IMG/VR virus record: IMGVR_UViG_3300020152_000001
Location: 1-44,765 of that record
DNA length: 44,765 nt
Reading direction: 5' to 3' (one strand)
Origin: a virus
Lineage: Duplodnaviria > Heunggongvirae > Uroviricota > Caudoviricetes
Of the stretch, positions 3,713 through 11,727 are shown one piece after another. A program made the translations under genes and the position numbers. Within the stretch, counting starts at the first letter, position 1. Every line of letters starts with the position of its first letter. The notes beneath the pieces are model-generated. The model was not told the origin of the DNA, did not search any database, and saw only the letters and a list, made by a program, of their open reading frames with translations.

Positions 3713-4513
3713 TTATTGCGCACCGAGTTTGTATTGGTGGGCGAGAGCCAGACGCTTCTCAGGAGCGAGCTTGTTGAACTGCTCCATCGTCATGCCGTTT
3801 GGCAGCGTCTTGCCGTTTCCACCGTTGTTGCCGCCGCCGTTGGCACCGCCACCGTTCGACTGCTTGAAGAAGTACGGAGCTTCTTCCTTGAGCTTGCCGA
3901 GCCATTCGAGCGGAGTCATCGCCGAGACGCCGTCTGCGCCATAGATGATGGCTTCGCCTTGCAAGGGGACGACACTGCCGTCATCCTTGACTTTGAAGAC
4001 CTTCGATGCGCGTTCCACGATGTCCGTGAGCGCACGAGCTTCGGCGCCAGACTTCGGGTCGAGCACAGCGTCGGTGATCACGCGATCAATGACCGAACGC
4101 CGATATTTGTTGTCGAACTCACCGGCGTTCTTTTCCGCCGCGACGCGCGCTTGTTCAGCAGCGAGCAGTCGTTGTTCGTAGCCCTGCTTCATCGACTCGA
4201 CACGCCGGGCGACTTCCGCCTCGATGTTGTCCGAGCCCTTGAGCTTGCCGTCCTTCACCTGCTGATCGACCGTCTTCAGACGTTCGACTTCAGTCTTGAA
4301 GCCATCGAAGTCGTCGCCGATCAGCGGCGCCAGAACATCGATCTTTTGCTTCAGACCATCACGTTCCTGGCTGATCTTCAGGTTGTTGTCGCGGAATTCG
4401 TCGAGCTTGGCCTTCGGGACCACGTTGACGACGAACTTGCCTTCAACTTCCTTCGCAGCTTCCTTGAGACCGTCCGGAATCGCTTCCATCGTGTCGAACG
4501 TAATGTCAGGCAT
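3713..4513 (-). CDS. capsid scaffolding protein
   Basis: Coiled-coil 266 aa upstream of MCP; KLDEFRDNN motif; Gly-rich tail. Confidence 0.8.
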   Translation of the reverse strand: MPDITFDTMEAIPDGLKEAAKEVEGKFVVNVVPKAKLDEFRDNNLKISQERDGLKQKIDVLAPLIGDDFDGFKTEVERLKTVDQQVKDGKLKGSDNIEAEVARRVESMKQGYEQRLLAAEQARVAAEKNAGEFDNKYRRSVIDRVITDAVLDPKSGAEARALTDIVERASKVFKVKDDGSVVPLQGEAIIYGADGVSAMTPLEWLGKLKEEAPYFFKQSNGGGANGGGNNGGNGKTLPNGMTMEQFNKLAPEKRLALAHQYKLGAQ

Positions 4514-4667
4514 TCTTACCTCCCCGAGGTATTGAGTTGGACGAGCAGACCCTGCTTGCCGCCTCCCCGACCCTCGGAGAGGACTTTATGGGTTCCGGGC
4601 CCGAGAGCCCGGAGGTGCCGGCGGATGCACCGCGCGGCGTTGATTCCCGTGTGAGGGATACTGACGA

Positions 4668-4696
4668 GAGTTAACCAAACTGACCACAAAGGTCAA
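4668..4696 (-). promoter_or_regulatory. sigma70-like promoter of the capsid operon
   Basis: TTGACC-N17-TAACTC upstream of a structured scaffold leader. Confidence 0.5.
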
Positions 4697-4717
4697 TATA
4701 GCTAACGGCTCACCGGC

Positions 4718-5035
4718 TCACTTTTTCTGTCCCGGCATCGCTTGTCCGCAGTGCGGGCACGGCGGCGGGGCGTTTTGTGCCGCGAGCTTCGCCTTCCACT
4801 CTGCGATTGCGCTGTTGCCGTGAGCCGTGACGACGTGATCCTCTTCGAAAGTCTCGGAGACGTAGTAGTCGTCACCGAGAAGCGGCTTCACGTGCCGGCG
4901 ACGAGACTTTAGGCGCCGGATCGTGATCTTAGCCGAGGCCATGTAGCCGTACATCCCGGGCTCATGGTCCTCTTCGATCGAGAGGATGGTCTCGCGAATG
5001 ACGCCGCGAGCGCGATCGGCCATGACGGCCTCCAT
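4718..5035 (-). CDS. hypothetical protein with C-terminal CxxC
   Basis: ORF with GGAGG RBS; CPHCGQ motif. Confidence 0.7.
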   Translation of the reverse strand: MEAVMADRARGVIRETILSIEEDHEPGMYGYMASAKITIRRLKSRRRHVKPLLGDDYYVSETFEEDHVVTAHGNSAIAEWKAKLAAQNAPPPCPHCGQAMPGQKK

Positions 5036-5044
5036 GTGCGAAAC

Positions 5045-5120
5045 TGGTCAGGGCGGAGAGATTCGAACTCCCGACCCCCTGTATCCAAAACAGGTGCGCT
5101 ACCAGCTGCGCTACGCCCTG
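5045..5120 (-). tRNA. tRNA-Pro(TGG)
   Basis: Full cloverleaf CAGGGCG...CGCCCTG-A-CCA; anticodon arm CCTGT-TTTGGAT-ACAGG; GTTCGAAT T-loop. Confidence 0.93.
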
Positions 5121-5134
5121 ATCTGACCTCTCGC

Positions 5135-5287
5135 TTAGTGCGAGGGTCGCGGTCGAGCGGACGCGCGAGCGCGTTGGTTTTTGCCGAAGCCCCAGCCGTT
5201 ACGCTGGGCGCGAAGAACCGTGCCCCCGTCGAAGACGACGAGAGCGGTGATAAGCAACAGCACTAGCAGCAGGCTGACGAAGTCCAT
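5135..5287 (-). CDS. small membrane protein
   Basis: ATG at 5287 with AAGGA RBS; N-terminal hydrophobic helix; basic tail. Confidence 0.6.
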   Translation of the reverse strand: MDFVSLLLVLLLITALVVFDGGTVLRAQRNGWGFGKNQRARASARPRPSH

Positions 5288-5300
5288 CGTCGTGATCCTT

Positions 5301-5378
5301 TGGTGCCGCGTGTGAGTGTCGAACTCACCCTGGACGGTTTCTGAGACCGTTGCCTCTACCAACGTGGGCTAACGCGGC
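5301..5378 (-). tRNA. tRNA-Leu(CAG) with short variable loop
   Basis: GCCGCGT...ACGCGGC-A-CCA; ACGGT-CTCAGAA-ACCGT; 5-nt variable region CCAGG. Confidence 0.88.
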
Positions 5379-5391
5379 AGAAGAGGGTCGG

Positions 5392-5469
5392 TGGTCGCGG
5401 GGGTCGGATTTGAACCGACGACCTACTGGTTATGAGCCAGCCGAGCTAACCGGACTGCTCCACCCCGCA
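5392..5469 (-). tRNA. tRNA-Met(CAT), initiator-like body
   Basis: TGCGGGG...CCCCGCG-A-CCA; A11:U24; CTCATAA loop; closely resembles bacterial tRNA-fMet. Confidence 0.9.
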
Positions 5470-5540
5470 GAAATTGGCGCTCCGAATAACGCCTCGGAAC
5501 TACGGCGACGTGGATTTTGGGCGGCACGTTCGCCCCGAAT

Positions 5541-5618
5541 TGGCAAAGGTCTAGGGAATCGAACCCTACTAGAACGGTTTTGGAGACCGACGCCTAACAC
5601 CAGCCGAGCCCGACCAAT
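5541..5618 (-). pseudogene. degenerate tRNA-Trp(CCA)
   Basis: Intact CGGT-CTCCAAA-ACCG arm, T-arm and G-CCA end; two U:U mismatches in the acceptor stem, no U8, poor D-arm. Confidence 0.65.
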
Positions 5619-5725
5619 CTCTGATCGGCATGCCGGCCGATCGAGTTAGCGGTTCACCTGCCATCGATGGGCGGGACGCGTCACTGTCTCAAACTCCAAA
5701 TCCGAAAGCCGACGCGTACTCTCGC

Positions 5726-6012
5726 AGAGGCGTCAGCCGTGTTGTCGAGATCGAGAACTGAAGCCCGTAGGGACTCGGGCTCCCTTTCGCGAGAATTCCT
5801 AATGGGGCGTCGGCCCTTCCCCGACAACGTCGCTCATCAAGGCGACGACCCCTGGTGCTGGGCGCGGGTTCACCGCTTCCCGGAAGCGGCACCTACACGT
5901 GGCAGGGCCGTCAGTATTAGAGGCCGGTACTGACCGCTCATCGCCGCTCTTCTCCGCGAACGGAGCGCATTCAAGCGTGTCGGACTTTCTCGACCTCGCT
6001 TCCCGGGCCTCT
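5726..6012 (-). ncRNA. large structured RNA with RNase-P-RNA-like P1/P2/P4 core
   Basis: Terminal stem AGAGGC/GCCTCT; 12-bp long-range helix CGAGGTCGAGAA/TTCTCGATCTCG; GAGAAAGTCCG and ACAACACGGCTGA resemble CR-I and CR-V and form a bulged P4; several internal hairpins. Confidence 0.55.
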
Positions 6013-6031
6013 CGACCCCAGAAGAAGAATT

Positions 6032-6093
6032 TGGAGCAGGGACGAGGGTTACACTCCCTCGCGAATTTCACCCGACCTCGCGGCCGGCCCCAC
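6032..6093 (-). ncRNA. miniature cloverleaf ending in CCA
   Basis: GTGGGG/CCCTGC stem with 2 GU pairs, GCGA-tetraloop arm, 4-bp stub arm, GAGGG-7nt-CCCTC arm, T-CCA. Confidence 0.45.
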
Positions 6094-6096
6094 GTA

Positions 6097-6378
6097 AATG
6101 CGCCGGGTTCTGTTGCCGGGCCCCGGCGGCCCCGCTCCGCGCCCTTAGGCCGCGCGAGCAAACTCTTGGTTGTCGTTCGCAGTTGAACGCCACCTGCCCC
6201 GCGCCTGTCGATACCTACTTCGCCCCCATCACCTACCCACCGAACACCCTCCACGGGTCCGGGGTCGTGAGGCCCCTGGCGGCCCCGAGTCACGAATGGG
6301 CCGGCCGATGAGTATGTGGTGGAGGCGGCGGGTGCCGCCCCCGCGTCCAGACACAAAGCCCTCGCTTTCGCAAGGAGC
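6097..6378 (-). ncRNA. ssrA: circularly permuted two-piece tmRNA: acceptor piece ~6378-6317, IVS 6316-6228, coding piece 6227-~6097
   Basis: ...GACGCGGGGGCGGCACCCGCCGCCTCCACCA precedes GGGGGCGAAGTAGGTATCGAC; the two form a 7-bp acceptor stem with G3.U70; tag frame 6180-6145 after CAACT reads ANDNQEFARAA-stop. Confidence 0.93.
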
Positions 6379-6381
6379 CGT

Positions 6382-6411
6382 GATGTAAGCATGCCTTACG
6401 CTTGATGTCAA
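6382..6411 (-). promoter_or_regulatory. tmRNA promoter
   Basis: TTGACA-N15-GCTTACATC, close to the Caulobacter housekeeping promoter pattern; CGTAAG in spacer. Confidence 0.75.
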
Positions 6412-6674
6412 GCGTGTTTGCGGCGCGGAATAAAACCGTCGCTGACTTTTATCGCGACGCTGCCTTTCAGCGAGTGGACCTTCGGCGCTTCTGGCGTGCC
6501 GGCCGCGACAGCAACTTCGGCGATGCCAGCGGCGTCGATCGCGCCTTCGGAGATCAGCCTTCGCGCTTCGACGATGTCGACGACGCGAACAGGCGACAGG
6601 CGGCCGTTGTCGAGACGGCGGAGTAGGCGAAAGCGCCCGGCGCGGGCGCGGCTGTGTTTGATCGTCAGACTCAT
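6408..6674 (-). CDS. hypothetical protein (88 aa)
   Basis: ATGA overlap with the thyA stop. Confidence 0.65.
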
Positions 6675-7552
6675 TTGCTCACGGGCGCTTTGATCGTTGG
6701 GTGTGGCTGGTAGCCTACGAGGTTGAAGTCTTCGAAGACGAAGTCGTCGATGTCCTGGCGTGTTGGGTTGATGATCATCTCCGGCGCCTTGCGAGTTTCG
6801 TCCCAGCGGCTGAGTTGAAGTCGCGCCTGATCGAGGTGGTTCTCGTACAGATGGCAATCGCCGATCGTATGGACGAACTCTCCGGGCTCAAGGTGGCAAA
6901 TCTGTGCGATCATCATCGTCAGCAGCGCGTAGCTCGCGATGTTGAACGGAACGCCTAGGAAGAAGTCACCGCTGCGCTGATACAGATGGCAGTTCAGCTT
7001 GCCTTCCTGAACGTAGAATTGGAAGAGCACGTGGCACGGCGGCAGCGCGACATCGGCGAGATCGTCGGGGTTCCAGGCCGTGACTATGTGCCGGCGGCCG
7101 TGTGGGTCCTTCTTGATGCCGTTGATCACGCGCCAGAGCTGGTCGATGCTCTGCTGTCCCCAACAACGCCACTGCTCTCCGTAAACGGGTCCGAGGTCGC
7201 CGTTCTCGTCTGCCCACTCATCCCAGATCGTGACGCCGGCTTCTTGCAGGCTGCGGACATTGGTCTCGCCGCGAATGAACCAGAGGAGTTCGTGGATGAC
7301 GGACTTCAGATGCACACGCTTCGTCGTCAGCAGCGGAAAGCCTTTGTCGAGATCGAAGCGCATCTGCGGCGCGAAGATCGAGATCGTCGGGCCGTTGCGG
7401 GTCTCGGCGCGGACGCCGCGCTCCAAGATCAATTCCAAGACGCGGAGATACTCGTCGTCGAAGACGTTGGTGCAAGGAGATGGGATCGAACCACCGACCA
7501 CAGCATTATCGGTGCTGTGCTCTACCGCTGAGCTATCCTTGCTCGAAATCAT
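6671..7552 (-). CDS. thyA: thymidylate synthase
   Basis: [43 protein letters not shown] motifs; start uncertain because a tRNA overlaps the 5' end. Confidence 0.95.
7468..7542 (-). tRNA. tRNA-Ile(GAT) nested in the thyA frame, with C33
   Basis: GCAAGGA...TCCTTGC-A-CCA; GCTC/GAGC D-stem; CAGCA-CCGATAA-TGCTG; GGTGG-TTCGATC-CCATC. Confidence 0.9.
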
Positions 7553-7582
7553 ATTTGCTCTGTGTCTTTCTACCGGAGAAAT

Positions 7583-7768
7583 TCAAGCCGCTCCGTGGCG
7601 GACGCGAACTCTCAGAGGTCCAAAGCACCAGAAGGATTCCTTGAGGTGCCGGCGTGGGAATTCCCAGGCCCAGTCTTTCCAAGAGGCGAACAGAGCGTGC
7701 TCTTCGCCCTTCCAATTCCAATAGAGCCAGTAGTTGGCTCCTCGTCGCGGGAACGTGAACCGTTTCAT
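7583..7768 (-). CDS. Trp-rich hypothetical protein
   Basis: ATGA overlap with the upstream gene. Confidence 0.65.
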   Translation of the reverse strand: MKRFTFPRRGANYWLYWNWKGEEHALFASWKDWAWEFPRRHLKESFWCFGPLRVRVRHGAA

Positions 7769-7968
7769 TTGTGCTCGACGATGCGAACGCGATGACTGCC
7801 GCCGAAGCGACGATCAGCGAACGCTTCCGCTTCTGCCTTGCTGTTGAATTTCTTCGCTGCGGGTTTGATCGTCGTCCAACCGTAATGCGCGAAGAAGCCG
7901 ATCTTCATCTCGCAGTAGAAGAGAGTGCCGGCCAGACGCACGCGATGTTCGATCAGCCAGCAGGACAT
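7765..7968 (-). CDS. hypothetical protein
   Basis: ATG at 7968 with GAGGAAG RBS. Confidence 0.7.
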   Translation of the reverse strand: MSCWLIEHRVRLAGTLFYCEMKIGFFAHYGWTTIKPAAKKFNSKAEAEAFADRRFGGSHRVRIVEHK

Positions 7969-7969
7969 C

Positions 7970-8497
7970 TCACTTCCTCTTCGAGCGCACCCGCCATTTG
8001 TCGAGTGGGAGTTTGGTGTCGACGTAATTGATGCCATCGCCACATCCGCTGCTGTGCTTGATGGCAGCGCGGACGGCTTTAATGGCTCCGGAGTCCTTGT
8101 GTGCAAACATGCAGCCGAGCGCGACTGAAGCTCCGGCTCCGCGTGCGAAGTATTCGGGAATCTTCGCACCTCGGTACACGAGCAGCGAGCTGTTGTTTTT
8201 CGAGACCGACGTGAAGTCGATCAGCATCCGCTTCTTGCGGCTGTCTTTCGGTACGGCGACGATGAGAAGTGTTAGGTCGCCGGGATAACTTGGCCGAGCG
8301 CCCGTTTCCACGATCTCTTTCGCCATGGCGACACAGTTGTCGTCGCTGTCGGCGTTGCCGGCCATGCCGACTACGCACTTGTAGTCCTTGGTGCTGAAGA
8401 TCGACAGCTTCGACATCGCCCCCATGGGCATGTCTTCGTCGAAATTGACCCGACGATCAGCAGCAATGACGCCGTCGCGATAGACGAGAACAGTCAC
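7970..8497 (-). CDS. HslV/proteasome-beta-like Ntn hydrolase
   Basis: M-T start, YRDGVIAAD, VVGMAGN and ARGAGASVALG motifs. Confidence 0.7.
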   Translation of the reverse strand: MTVLVYRDGVIAADRRVNFDEDMPMGAMSKLSIFSTKDYKCVVGMAGNADSDDNCVAMAKEIVETGARPSYPGDLTLLIVAVPKDSRKKRMLIDFTSVSKNNSSLLVYRGAKIPEYFARGAGASVALGCMFAHKDSGAIKAVRAAIKHSSGCGDGINYVDTKLPLDKWRVRSKRK

Positions 8498-8514
8498 AGA
8501 GGACCCTTCAGCTC

Positions 8515-8547
8515 AAAAGAAACTGTGGGCTTGCCGTAGAGTCCCAC
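8515..8547 (-). terminator. hairpin plus U-rich tract at the 3' end of the large RNA
   Basis: GTGGG-N13-CCCAC then AGTTTCTTTT. Confidence 0.5.
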
Positions 8548-8935
8548 TACTCCCCCGTGCCCGAAGGCGGCTCATCCGCGTGGCCACGCGAACTCACATG
8601 AGGAACGACGCTATCGGAGTCGCGTCGCGGCATGCTGGGTACTTTCGGCCGCCGGGACCGCCCCGACCTCATGCCTGTTTCACCTTCCCCAGCACTTGCA
8701 GAATTTTGCCGATGACGGTGTCCCCGCCTTCCCTGCTGCCCGGCGACAGCTCTCTCCCTCACACGCGCTACCCGTGCGCTTAGCCAGCTCCACACGGGGC
8801 GGGGAGACGCTGAGACCCGGCCCCCGAGCACTGGCCGCCCAGACAGGGAAAACTCGGTTTCCAATCATCGCCGCCGGTGTCCCCGGAGAACGGCACGATC
8901 GGCACAGCGGTACACTTCAGTCTCGCTTCGGCGAT
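8515..8935 (-). ncRNA. ~420-nt multi-pseudoknot RNA (GOLLD-like candidate)
   Basis: No credible ORF; three crossing helix pairs; many hairpins; TTGACT-N16-TACGTC promoter at 8940-8967; 3' hairpin plus U tract. Confidence 0.65.
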
Positions 8936-8974
8936 CGGCGACGTACCGGCCTCATGCGGGGAGTCAAAATCAAA

Positions 8975-9042
8975 CGCAGCAGGCGGGTGCGTCCCGCGTA
9001 TCCCTCAGGCGTTGAGGGCGTCCTAGCCTAGACGACCGCCGC
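8975..9042 (-). ncRNA. tRNA-like cloverleaf with intact stems, non-canonical loops and no CCA
   Basis: GCGGCGG/CTGCTGC, GTC/GAC D-arm, CCCTC-AACGCCT-GAGGG, GCGGG-ACGCA-CCCGC. Confidence 0.55.
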
Positions 9043-9046
9043 GAAA

Positions 9047-9117
9047 TGCTGCCCGGGACGTTCCGCTATGGCGCGGATTTAAGCTCGACGGCCTTGTGTC
9101 GAGCACTCCCGGGACTG
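9047..9117 (-). ncRNA. three-way-junction small RNA element
   Basis: CCCGGGA/TCCCGGG encloses GCTCGAC/GTCGAGC and TCCGC/GCGGA hairpins. Confidence 0.4.
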
Positions 9118-9192
9118 CAAACAATCAAGACTTGCGCTTCTGCTTCATCGACTCGCGCTTTCGCCCACGCTGACCGGGGCCGCCTTGACCTT

Positions 9193-9280
9193 TGGTGCCG
9201 AGAGAAGGAGTCGAGCCTTCGGGGCTCCGAAGAGCAACGCGTTTACAGCGCGCTCCCGCCCCCTACGGGTCTACCTCGGC
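9193..9280 (-). tRNA. tRNA-Tyr(GTA)
   Basis: GCCGAG/CTCGGC stem, A-CCA end; GCGCG-CTGTAAA-CGCGT; long variable arm with UUCG; C54 in T-loop. Confidence 0.87.
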
Positions 9281-9294
9281 AATATCTGGCTCTC

Positions 9295-9438
9295 AGCAGG
9301 TAGGGTATGTCGCCGAGACTTTCGCTCCGACGCCTTCAAACCGCCCCGCCGGAGACCTGACTAAACTCATCCGGACCCGCCCCACGTGCGGCCACTTACG
9401 CCACCGCCGTGATCTCTCCGGTTAAGACCCCCCACCTG
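9295..9438 (-). ncRNA. ~140-nt structured RNA element
   Basis: 10-bp closing helix GCAGGTGGGG/CCCTACCTGC; CCGGAGA/TCTCCGG; GAAA-tetraloop hairpin. Confidence 0.45.
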
Positions 9439-9443
9439 CTTTT

Positions 9444-9499
9444 TGGTGGAGGAAGGCCGCTCTTGGCTCGACAGCGGGTCCGCGCCGTCGACTTCCGCC
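9444..9499 (-). ncRNA. miniature tRNA-like element ending in ACCA
   Basis: GGCGGAAG/CTTCCTCC-A-CCA with one mismatch, enclosing TCGACGGC/GCTGTCGA and GCC/GGC hairpins. Confidence 0.5.
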
Positions 9500-9618
9500 C
9501 TGCCATTGCCGCCCCGGCAGGGACCTGTAACTCATGGTGAGCAGGACCTAGAAGCTCGCCTGGGATTTCGTTCCCCGGGGTTAGAAACGCGGAAAATCTT
9601 CCCCGTTCTCCGTAGTCC

Positions 9619-9661
9619 TGGTGCCGCGTTGACACCCACCTAAAGGCCGGCGTTACCCGGC
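9619..9661 (-). ncRNA. minihelix-like element ending in ACCA
   Basis: GCCGGGT/ACGCGGC-A-CCA with one mismatch, enclosing one hairpin; 3' end identical to that of tRNA-Leu (ACGCGGCACCA). Confidence 0.4.
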
Positions 9662-9756
9662 GAATTCATCGTCGCCTCCCTTGGTCGAGTATCGACAGCG
9701 GGGGTCTTACGCGTTCGTCACGCCGCCCCCGTCTATTCGGTAGCTCAGAGTAAGGG

Positions 9757-9785
9757 AGGATTGCACACGTCAGCGAGACTGTCAA
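9757..9785 (-). promoter_or_regulatory. putative promoter of the ncRNA array
   Basis: GCTTGACA at 9780-9787 upstream of the CCTCCCTT/AAGGGAGG-closed hairpin; -10 weak. Confidence 0.45.
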
Positions 9786-9793
9786 GCAGGATT

Positions 9794-9997
9794 TTAGGCT
9801 TCGAGCTGGCGTTCGCAGAAGGCCGCGTAGACGTTGGGTCGATTGGCCCCGGAGCCTTCATGGTTCTCGGCCGAGGTCGCCGCCGCTCGCATGCACTCAG
9901 TCAGCGTGCGGTATTCGCCAACGGGGACCGTAGTCGTTGTGTCCCAGAGCCCGAAGAGCTTCAAGTGGATGACGACGACCAGGACCCAGACTTCCAT
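9794..9997 (-). CDS. small protein with hydrophobic N-terminus and two Cys
   Basis: TAATG overlap with the portal stop. Confidence 0.65.
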   Translation of the reverse strand: MEVWVLVVVIHLKLFGLWDTTTTVPVGEYRTLTECMRAAATSAENHEGSGANRPNVYAAFCERQLEA

Positions 9998-11727
9998 TAT
10001 CTGCGGCCTCCGCCGCCGCCGGCCGGTCGTTGGCCACCGCCCTGGCGCTGCTGCTGCGCCGCTCGAAGCGCGTTGGCTTGTGGCGGCGGCCGTAGTTTGG
10101 CCTCGCGTTCGCGGGCCTTGCGTTCGGCTTCGGCTTGCTCGCTCTCGTGTTCGCGAGTTGCGGCTCCCTCTTCGCTCTCGTGTTCGCGATCGAGCGCGTT
10201 CTCGCCGCGATCGAGATCGGCGTTCTCGTCGTCGATCTCCGACTGCCGGTTCGGGTAGCCGCGCTGGCGGGCTTCGGCGTCCGGCTGCATCGGGAACGAG
10301 TTCGTGCTCGTGAGCAGCTTCTTGAGTTCTTCGATCGACAGCCAGTCGGGGATGACTTCGGCGCGACGCAGGTAGTCGTGAACGACTTCGATCGGCAGGA
10401 TGCCATCGGTATACATCGCGTGGATGGCGCGGAACTCGCGAGCGCTGATGTTGTCGAACAGGAAGTCTTTGTTGCTTTCGACCAGAGCCTTCTCGGCTTC
10501 GGCCGCCGGCACGTCTTGCCAGACCAGCCACCACTGCAGCAGCTGCGTGAAGCCGGTGTCCAGCGTGCTCGACACATTCAACAGCGTCGACTGTTCGTTG
10601 CGCTCTTTGGTCTTGGCGACGTTGTCGCTCTCGGCCGTCGAGCCGCTGCGAAAACCCAGAAGCCGACCGCCGAGGCTCGACACCTGTTGTTCTTTTTGAT
10701 CGAGAGCGGACTCAAGAAACTTGAGACCATGGCCGTTGAATTCAATGACGCCGGGCTTTTCGTTTGGCCCGACTTCCCAGACCGTCGACGGGCCCAGGTG
10801 GTATTCGCTCTTGTCGCTGGCTCCGTTCACCTGCACGTAGTAGATCGGGAGCCCGGTGAAGAAGCGCCCGTGCTCCAGGTGAGCGTAGCTGCGATAGTGG
10901 CTGAGGTTCAGCGTCGCGATGTCATACACCGGCGACTTCTCGACATCGGGGCCGTTGGTGTACGGGCCGAAGAAGACGAAGGGGATGTAGGAGAATGGGA
11001 CGCCGCGATTTTTCGGCGTGAAGACGTTGGACGGGGCGGCGTCGATCGACGCATCCGCGCCTTCGTTCTCGTAGACCTCTTGCACGTAGGCCCAACCGTT
11101 CGAGGTCTCGGACGACTCCACGAGCTTGCAGATGCGATACGTGGTGAAATACTGGCGGCTCTGTCCTTGAGACGCGCGGCTGATCTTGATCTCGCGGAGA
11201 ACGATTTTCGAGAGCACGCAGCGGCCGTCGATGTCCATCGTCTCCCAGTCGACGATGTTCTCGGAGATGTAGGAGCAGAGATACGGCGGCGCGCTGCCGT
11301 TCGCATCCATGTCGAGGAGAACGCCGACACGGCCCATGTGGATGATTTCTTGGGCCACGAGCTTGACGACGAGTTCAAGGCTCTCGTTGCTCTTGCCGAT
11401 CTTCTTCAGTCCCTTCTCCAGGCGCTGAGGAACGCCGGTGAACTTCGCCGGCCGGCGGAAGAGCGTGCCAATCATTCCCGACACAGTGCGACCGACCATG
11501 TTGTAGAACACGGCGCGATCGAGATAGGCCTGATACTCGTCGGTGTCCTGGGTCTCCAGGCGCGGGAGGTAGATGACGCCCTTCCGCTTGACCTCGACTT
11601 CGCCGAGGAAGGTGTCGCGCAACAACGACCACTCCGGCGCCCAATAGGCGTAGTCCGGGTGGGCGAACTCCGGGCCCATGGTCAGAGCCGCGAGAGCGCG
11701 ATTATTTTGCGGGTTCTTTTTGGCCAC
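9997..11727 (-). CDS. portal protein (DUF4055-type)
   Basis: 576 aa; YLPRL..Y..Y..RA.FYN..RT..G, GRVGVLLD, N..HY...A motifs. Confidence 0.9.
   Translation of the reverse strand: MAKKNPQNNRALAALTMGPEFAHPDYAYWAPEWSLLRDTFLGEVEVKRKGVIYLPRLETQDTDEYQAYLDRAVFYNMVGRTVSGMIGTLFRRPAKFTGVPQRLEKGLKKIGKSNESLELVVKLVAQEIIHMGRVGVLLDMDANGSAPPYLCSYISENIVDWETMDIDGRCVLSKIVLREIKISRASQGQSRQYFTTYRICKLVESSETSNGWAYVQEVYENEGADASIDAAPSNVFTPKNRGVPFSYIPFVFFGPYTNGPDVEKSPVYDIATLNLSHYRSYAHLEHGRFFTGLPIYYVQVNGASDKSEYHLGPSTVWEVGPNEKPGVIEFNGHGLKFLESALDQKEQQVSSLGGRLLGFRSGSTAESDNVAKTKERNEQSTLLNVSSTLDTGFTQLLQWWLVWQDVPAAEAEKALVESNKDFLFDNISAREFRAIHAMYTDGILPIEVVHDYLRRAEVIPDWLSIEELKKLLTSTNSFPMQPDAEARQRGYPNRQSEIDDENADLDRGENALDREHESEEGAATREHESEQAEAERKAREREAKLRPPPQANALRAAQQQRQGGGQRPAGGGGGRR

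Follow-up and report, generated by a model that had tools for sequence, protein, structure and literature searches.

What kind of locus occupies the interval between the portal and scaffold genes of a tailed phage when more than half of it appears to code for no protein? The question is raised by a stretch of 44,765 nucleotides (nt), hereafter the window, that covers positions 1 to 44,765 of the IMG/VR virus record IMGVR_UViG_3300020152_000001 (Caudoviricetes); the whole record is 132,731 bp long, complete and bounded by direct terminal repeats, and the window makes up its first 44.8 kb. A reading made from the letters alone (the sequence-only reading) had described the island at 9785-5045 as a one-directional series of RNAs, comprising tRNAs, a transfer-messenger RNA (tmRNA), an RNase-P-like RNA, an "ornate" RNA and CCA-ended mini-elements, interleaved with thyA and an HslV-like protease gene, and had proposed that they could form an RNA-level module for tRNA supply, tRNA processing, ribosome rescue and tagged-protein turnover. 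The layout is as it had been drawn: every feature lies on the minus strand, and the statement that most of the sequence lacks credible open reading frames (ORFs) is roughly right, since approximately 55% of the 4.75 kb is non-coding. Of the proposed functions, tRNA supply and ribosome rescue are supported because the tRNA and tmRNA genes are real; tRNA processing and tagged-protein turnover are not. We regard it as fairly probable that the island is a hypervariable accessory locus of a siphophage of the Lacusarx/phiCbK supergroup, with a tRNA cluster and an alpha-type two-piece tmRNA placed in the portal-scaffold interval.

The setting of the island is that of a structural gene block. On its 5′ side it is bordered by the portal gene (11727-9997, minus strand, DUF4055), with a membrane-type ORF of 67 amino acids (aa) in between (9997-9794, minus strand), and on its 3′ side come a 105-aa ORF, a scaffold gene (4513-3713, phrog_206) and a GP7-type major capsid gene, all on the minus strand. 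The portal shares 42-52% identity with its counterparts in approximately 60 uncultivated phages and 44% with that of a related 130,138-bp record that is putatively Sphingobium phage Lacusarx; because of these identities, the phage can be assigned on sequence grounds to the Lacusarx/DSS3phi8/phiCbK-like assemblage, as a predicted siphophage of alphaproteobacteria. Homologs were sought by exact-pattern scans of viral and metagenome contigs and by blastn against 50,697 phage records. Among the relatives examined, the island directly follows the portal gene in four lineages only, namely, the window, L006 (portal 79% identical to that of the window), L003 (62%; also represented by L007, L070 and L073) and L004 (63%; also L008 and L071, with L005/L072 as a near-identical fragment of this lineage). 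The tmRNA-pattern scans of viral and metagenome contigs returned nothing new beyond copies of L003 and L004/L005.

Gene identities, synteny, the pattern of insertions and deletions, compensatory changes and the distribution of genes among relatives could all be observed directly in these genomes. The four lineages share one order: promoter, (an odd tRNA), tRNA-Tyr, (tRNA-Asn, tRNA-Phe), small ORFs, tRNA-Ile, an ORF, promoter, tmRNA, tRNA-Trp, tRNA-Met, tRNA-Leu and tRNA-Pro. The segments between these RNA genes differ from lineage to lineage. In a base-by-base comparison, the core of an Atu_At1-family RNA described below and segment 9364-9281 are absent from L006, and 6096-5745 is swapped there for 111 nt of mostly different sequence. 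Because the material between the RNA genes differs in this way, the island is a mosaic in which cargo is gained and lost at tRNA boundaries.

The tRNAs announced by the sequence-only reading are present. ARAGORN finds five canonical genes, each a cloverleaf with a 7-nt anticodon loop and a T-loop: the class II tRNA-Tyr(GTA) (9193-9280), tRNA-Ile(GAT) (7468-7542), tRNA-Met (5469-5392), tRNA-Leu(CAG) without a long variable arm (5378-5301) and tRNA-Pro (5120-5045). An Rfam covariance scan agrees for tRNA-Ile (66.7 bits), -Met, -Leu(CAG) and -Pro, and the order of the last three is kept in the four lineages. The tRNA-Tyr assignment comes from ARAGORN and from synteny in all four, its sole Rfam match being a sub-threshold tRNA-Sec (28.2 bits); this gene is 93% identical to its L006 counterpart, and the Ile, Met, Leu and Pro genes are 67-82% identical. 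A degenerate Trp-like tRNA with a CCA anticodon (5541-5618), detected by ARAGORN at a relaxed threshold only, has two U.U mismatches in the acceptor stem and an enlarged D loop, departs from the canonical form and gives an Rfam tRNA-Sec match of 28.3 bits, below the cut-off. It is 100% identical to L006, and L003 and L004 have a canonical tRNA-Trp in that place.

Some further observations concern these genes. The tRNA-Leu(CAG) carries discriminator A73 and a 5-nt variable region instead of the bacterial long arm, features conserved in all four lineages (L003:14949-15026, L004:15190-15267 and L006:12868-12945). The block 5744-5470, which contains a conserved spacer, the Trp-like tRNA and the next spacer, is 92-100% identical to L006, and the flanking tRNAs and ORFs are 64-82% identical; this points either to sequence recently exchanged by the two phages or to constraint of unusual strength. 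Outside the window, a sixth canonical tRNA gene, tRNA-Arg(CCG), lies at 98974-99050 of the genome, and a 215-aa open frame weakly matches, at 92246-92311, the PolyA_pol/CCA-adding nucleotidyltransferase head domain (19.2 bits, below the cut-off).

The tmRNA is also real and takes the form of a permuted alpha-type two-piece molecule (6369-6097), with 50.7 bits against RF04321 and 52.4 bits against RF01849, for which the gathering scores (the curated Rfam cut-offs) are 47 and 50, respectively. The acceptor piece (6369-6317) ends in an encoded CCA (6319-6317) and is followed by an intervening segment of 89 nt (6316-6228); the coding piece begins at G 6227 (GGGGGCG) and ends near 6097, the end of the Rfam model mapping to 6150-6097. 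Read from the sequence, GGGGGCG and CGCCUCC contain the G3.U70 alanine identity pair, and the tag ORF (6180-6145) encodes ANDNQEFARAA*, identical in L006. A segment of approximately 34 nt between helix 2 and the resume codon, which holds pk1 in L003 and L004, is deleted in the window and L006. This deletion explains the low model scores (related tmRNAs score 79-117 bits) and the failure of ARAGORN to find the gene at its default setting, a relaxed threshold being needed. The missing pk1 is best seen as a variant feature that would not exclude the gene from the tmRNA family, and the identical tag frame together with a coding piece 90% identical to that of L006 argues for continued selection despite the loss. 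An alpha-type tmRNA is found in 13 of the 17 related phage records, including all seven that are at least 90% complete (the putative Lacusarx record among them), and is a trait both old and common among these phages. The phage genome carries no smpB. As side observations, the intervening segment of the L006 tmRNA (L006:12180-12257) contains an approximately 85-nt insertion, in part a repeat of the beginning of the coding piece (GGTGGGTAGGTGATGGAGGCG...), and the last four tag residues are ARAA in the window and L006 and AIAA and ALAA in relatives, an arginine three residues from the C terminus being unusual for a ClpX-recognized ssrA tag.

Such a combination is not new to alphaproteobacterial phages, as tRNAs and a tmRNA have already been described for Lacusarx, whose "translation takeover" module comprises 24 tRNAs and one tmRNA (PMC5648845). 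Like Lacusarx and phiCbK-like phages of the same supergroup, the window phage has an alpha-type two-piece tmRNA and tRNA genes in one accessory region (PMC5648845). However, the window has five to six tRNAs rather than 24, and its cluster lies between portal and scaffold, whereas the Lacusarx region follows the replication genes (PMC5648845). The window tmRNA differs from that of Lacusarx in lacking the pk1 segment. The cargo differs as well, with thyA, the HslV-like gene and Atu_At1 in the window, and tadA, rtcB and sigA in the tRNA region of Lacusarx, which has thyX elsewhere (PMC5648845). More broadly, a survey recorded tmRNA genes in 402 of 18,146 phage genomes and 133 unique structures, of which 53 are two-piece (PMC9004378). 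A parallel from that survey is methylophage Melnitz, a phage that likewise carries a permuted ssrA behind an early-type promoter, but the 3′ domain of its tmRNA has a glutamine riboswitch, of which none was detected in the window, and its host range and tag sequence are different (PMC9004378); the window phage is without smpB. The island is one of the known phage tRNA/tmRNA accessory clusters, and what is new in it are two small conserved RNAs, a pk1-less tmRNA and a captured host small RNA (sRNA).

How the island might be expressed is suggested by its promoter-like sites. Three sigma70-like promoters had been proposed, at 9785, 8967 and 6411, and relatives keep the geometry of two of them. 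Site P1 (9757-9785) consists of TTGACA (9785-9780), a 17-nt spacer with TGc and AATCCT (9762-9757), and site P2, in front of the tmRNA (6383-6411), of TTGACA (6411-6406), 17 nt and TTACAT (6388-6383). The TTGAC boxes of both are kept in the four lineages with the 17-nt spacer; the TGTGn motif of P1 is retained in L006 and L004, and a TGn extended -10 is present in three of the four lineages at each site (the window and L006 at both, L004 at P1 and L003 at P2). The candidate at 8967 fails, as its -35 box reads ACGACT in L006 and the segment does not exist in L003 or L004. From this arrangement we infer the transcription units and the steps that follow, up to SmpB dependence. Transcription from P1 and P2, co-directional with the portal and scaffold genes, would give polycistronic precursors, which host RNase P, RNase Z/E and CCA-maintenance enzymes would cut into tRNAs and the two tmRNA pieces. 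The phage tRNAs may then extend the decoding capacity or substitute for host tRNAs lost in infection. The tmRNA would be charged by the host alanyl-tRNA synthetase, because it carries G3.U70, and would use host SmpB to rescue stalled ribosomes, appending ANDNQEFARAA. A captured Atu_At1 copy would have been placed behind a phage promoter. A sensible reading of the whole is that of an RNA cluster supporting translation and dependent on host enzymes, with unrelated accessory cargo mixed in.

Between tRNA-Tyr and the HslV-like gene, the sequence-only reading had drawn a single ornate RNA and likened it to GOLLD. Structured RNA is indeed present there, within 9115-8747; the drawn pseudoknots and extent did not survive comparison. 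The pseudoknot partners CAGGGAA (8735-8729) and GCGGGGA (8727-8721) are changed in L006 without compensation, and the 3′ part, a window-specific non-coding stretch (8498-8746), has no counterpart in L006 and is possibly the 5′ leader of the HslV-like gene. Rfam scans at E<=10 over 8480-9200 and at E<=1 over 4500-10300 returned no GOLLD, ROOL, HEARO or other large ornate RNA, and group I/II introns and riboswitches were likewise absent from the Rfam results. The 8500-9190 RNA region had no blastn match in the 50,697 phage records. What remains is two conserved units, one made of domains A and B and the other of domain C. Domain A (9051-9115) is a three-way junction with a CCCGGG closing helix and two hairpins; RNAalifold predicts it from an alignment of the window and L006, in which the pairs at columns 16:65 and 48:59 are compensatory. 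Domain B (8975-9043) is a tRNA-shaped cloverleaf. Its identity to L006, 94-96%, exceeds that of tRNA-Ile, -Met, -Leu and -Pro, and one A-U/U-A pair differs by compensatory change. The acceptor helix has 8 bp, the D arm resembles that of tRNA-Glu, the "anticodon" and "T" loops are of 5 nt and there is no CCA, so that the domain differs from a canonical tRNA; ARAGORN calls it at a relaxed threshold only, as tRNA-Ala(cgc), and it has no Rfam tRNA match. Over domains A and B together, 3 of 40 predicted pairs are changed on both sides relative to L006 and none is broken. An exact-pattern scan of viral contigs with the A/B block retrieved only L006. A covariance model of the junction-cloverleaf unit (R1, 9115-8975), run over 41 loci and 17 related genomes, returned one weak hit, in the distant relative L063, to a tRNA-like gene whose anticodon loop is abnormal, and the 17 genomes yielded nothing further.

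Domain C (8747-8919) is a predicted RNA of approximately 175 nt with three hairpin modules, whose motifs and hairpins are kept in the window, L006, L003 and L004. The single-stranded motifs UGAAGUG.AC, GAAACCGAG and GGCCGGGUC are invariant in the four lineages, and the three segments between and after them each keep their type of hairpin across the lineages while the helices differ considerably in sequence, a pattern that is suggestive of a structured RNA. In L003 and L004, domain C begins right at the 3′ end of tRNA-Asn, and in the window and L006 it follows the cloverleaf. It has no Rfam match. A weak YrlA match in L004 prompted us to consider a Y RNA, which was ruled out, there being no TROVE/Ro protein in the genome. 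The T4 tRNA operon is known to carry stable RNAs of unknown function (species 1 and 2), and GOLLD RNAs are found beside phage tRNAs. By analogy, the island RNAs would be structured non-coding RNAs inside a phage tRNA cluster, presumably freed by tRNA-processing enzymes, although they are much smaller than GOLLD and have no sequence or covariance-model similarity to GOLLD, ROOL or other Rfam families.

A further RNA, which the sequence-only reading had not recognized, is an Atu_At1-family RNA (RF02496) at 9536-9644, full length over model positions 1-108 with 69.1 bits against a gathering score of 60. Its helices are kept by compensatory changes relative to the Rfam family, and it is at best approximately 75% identical to bacterial copies, those of Ensifer and Shinella, which may point to a Rhizobiaceae-like host. 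Neither L006 nor the 17 related phage records have the core, and blastn of the element found no match in 50,697 phage records or 72,556 plasmids. In bacterial reference genomes, a pattern scan located at least 120 copies, often several per genome, mostly in Rhizobiaceae (Rhizobium, Shinella, Ensifer and others) with some in Brucella and sphingomonads, and their gene neighborhoods vary. Of 77 bacterial loci (from L074-L153), 64 have GGAAC-N15-18-CGTT upstream at a constant distance, compared with 1.7% of random windows. We take this box to resemble the sigma-EcfG general-stress promoter consensus, and it suggests that this orphan family may belong to the general stress response. Sigma-EcfG-regulated sRNAs have been described in Alphaproteobacteria (PMC5869019); no paper was found in the literature that links Atu_At1 to sigma-EcfG. 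Identification with GsrN or SuhB likewise had no support in the literature. The phage element differs from the bacterial copies in having neither this box nor a T-run, which lies within 120 nt downstream in approximately 29% of them, and the phage TTGACA box is approximately 135 nt upstream of it. The element has the appearance of a host sRNA core captured recently. It is possible, although less likely than not, that the cloverleaf-junction RNA, the three-hairpin RNA of approximately 175 nt and the captured Atu_At1 are independent functional molecules; in that case, the cloverleaf fused to the three-way junction may act as a decoy or mimic for a tRNA-binding host factor.

Several other accounts of the island have to be set against that of a hypervariable accessory locus. 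The boldest makes it an integrated RNA machine, in which tRNAs, an RNase-P-like ribozyme, the tmRNA, HslV for tagged proteins, a GOLLD-like RNA and CCA-ended punctuation act together; we hold it to be very improbable, and it is largely refuted already, in spite of parts that are co-oriented and adjacent and of an HslV-family gene that is real. Its ribozyme was placed at 6012-5726, where GAGAAAGUCCGAC (~5990) and ACAACACGGCU (~5745) loosely recall CR-I and CR-V of RNase P. However, RNase P models gave no match at E<=10 in 5600-6150 (551 nt) or at E<=1 in 4500-10300, and an RF00010 scan of the whole phage genome gave none, so that tRNA processing by a phage RNA loses its basis. Most of the claimed RNA lies in a variable spacer (5745-6096) with no Rfam match at E<=10 and no blastn match in the 50,697 phage records. 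The 5′ strands proposed for helices P1, P2 and P4 (6012-5981) fall in a window-specific segment absent from L006, L003 and L004, so that even the closest relative lacks the core, and in L003 and L004 tRNA-Trp abuts the tmRNA, which leaves such an RNA no space. The 3′ strands (P4b/P1b) belong to a conserved non-coding block (5619-5744, 92% identical to L006) and form a local 8-bp hairpin, GCUGACGC...GCGUCGGC at 5741-5702, in which two L006 substitutions (T->C and A->G) preserve pairing. The CR-V-reminiscent GGCAACAGAA belongs to the tmRNA: it is the 3′ part of the coding piece, a part that does not vary among the four lineages. Likeness to bacterial RNase P RNA (RF00010/RF00011) is limited to short GAAAGUCC-like and ACA.CA.GGCU-like strings; the claimed region has no P3 and, in relatives, no conserved P4 pseudoknot, and is itself not conserved.

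The punctuation and the protease of this machine fare no better. A scan for a hairpin followed by 5-8 nt and NCCA found 16 sites on the island strand, 10 of which are inside true tRNAs or the tmRNA; the six others, in approximately 4 kb, equal the genome background of 1.66/kb. In the supposed element at 9455, CCUCCACCA serves as the 5′ arm that pairs with GGUGGGGG, in a conserved non-coding block (9365-9459, 85% identical to L006) whose hairpin CCUCCACC / GGUGGGGG is strengthened in L006 by a T->C change that converts G.U to G-C. The protease gene (7970-8497, 175 aa) is, as claimed, of the HslV family of N-terminal nucleophile (Ntn) peptidases by its match to phrog_1040 (1.7e-15 over residues 1-162): the protein begins with M-T-V-L-V, the threonine nucleophile following the start codon immediately, and it has no Pfam match and only weak PDB sequence matches to proteasome beta subunits (E 0.045). 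Among the island-bearing lineages it occurs in the window alone, its place being taken by unrelated ORFs of 128 aa in L006 and 188 aa in L004. It is found in 1 of the 17 related phages, against 13 of 17 for the tmRNA, and there lies approximately 87 kb from the tmRNA. The phage genome encodes no HslU/ClpX-type ATPase (no AAA_2 domain), and together with the missing SmpB this leaves the proposed turnover of tagged proteins without footing. Roles as a prohead protease or a tmRNA-tag protease were ruled out by the distribution of the gene among relatives.

Two quieter accounts concern the tRNA-like and unassigned RNAs. Cloverleaf B, domain C, the Trp-like tRNA and the spacers could be decaying tRNA genes and processing spacers that aid only the folding and cleavage of the precursor. 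Relatives do have real tRNAs (the odd tRNA, Asn, Phe and Trp) where the window has tRNA-like or unassigned sequence, cloverleaf B retains a tRNA-Glu-type D arm and weakly matches the L063 gene, many insertions and deletions separate the spacers, and domain C lacks a thermodynamic signal. We nevertheless think decay unlikely: between the window and L006, cloverleaf B and the Trp-like gene are better conserved than four of the canonical tRNAs, the helix substitutions are compensatory, and the motifs of domain C are invariant across lineages whose portals are only 62-63% identical to that of the window. The other account, which we rate lower still, takes the island for a counter-defense locus, whose tRNAs replace nuclease-cut host tRNAs and whose tRNA-shaped RNAs with crippled loops are decoys for nucleases or tRNA-binding defense proteins. 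In T5-like phages, it is established that phage tRNAs counter tRNA-cleaving defenses. Well-conserved tRNA-like genes with abnormal loops recur here, in cloverleaf B of the window and L006, the 6-nt-loop tRNA of L003/L004 and the L063 gene, but the phage genome has no RNA repair gene (RtcB). The genes concerned in the relatives lie at L003:12063-12132, L004:12079-12149 and L063:2004-2077 (minus strand); ARAGORN assigns them "anticodons" of 2 nt, the loop of the L004 gene being 6 nt long. It seems that tRNA-like RNAs incapable of decoding are a repeated feature of these phages.

The accessory-locus reading has its own difficulties, and a number of observations tell against parts of it. A strict E. 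coli-type sigma-70 scan called no promoter in the island. The tmRNA may be impaired, because its scores barely exceed both Rfam cut-offs and the pk1 segment is absent, and its tag ends in RAA instead of the usual L/V/I-AA. The Trp-like tRNA has its acceptor-stem mismatches. The folding z-score of domain C is 0.12, thermodynamic z-scores being uninformative in this GC-rich DNA, and the covariation is anecdotal because there are only four lineages.

The remaining cargo adds to the picture of a variable locus. thyA, rightly placed in the island by the sequence-only reading, is a thymidylate synthase gene (6671-7467; PF00303, 1.1e-113, profile positions 2-265 of 266) that is deleted from L006, where a scar of the first ~8 and last ~3 codons remains at the same junction. 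thyA, the HslV-like gene and Atu_At1 are lineage-specific cargo. As a separate observation on thyA, there is no ATG, GTG or TTG between the CCA of tRNA-Ile (7468) and the conserved N-terminal helix; the sole upstream in-frame ATG (7552) precedes tRNA-Ile and would have the entire tRNA gene translated through, and the next in-frame TTG (7440) would cost approximately 7 residues of helix 1. Two small ORFs of 67 aa (7968-7765) and 61 aa (7768-7583) occupy 7583-7968 with 64% nucleotide identity to L006, and the latter has a counterpart in L003/L004. An 88-aa ORF (6408-6674), 71% identical to L006 and with an L004 counterpart upstream of the tmRNA, has a stop codon that overlaps the tmRNA promoter, and a 50-aa membrane-type ORF (5287-5135) lies between tRNA-Leu and tRNA-Pro. 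Nine candidate ORFs in the gaps of the island, on both strands, had no Pfam or PHROG match.

From a biological perspective, a phage-encoded RNase P within an integrated RNA machine would have been remarkable, and it fails testing. What the island offers is a clearly bounded case of phage tRNA/tmRNA cluster evolution by cargo swaps at tRNA boundaries, together with several leads. One is a natural tmRNA variant that has lost pk1 and kept its tag frame intact; others are a conserved tRNA-shaped RNA unable to decode and a small new structured RNA family. Across the 18 related phage genomes and 50,697 phage records searched, the Atu_At1 element is the only copy of this stress-regulated host sRNA and, if the capture is what it seems, would let the phage impose part of the host sigma-EcfG post-transcriptional program or sponge its targets. 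Finally, the sigma-EcfG-type promoters of the bacterial copies would give this orphan Rfam family a testable regulatory context.

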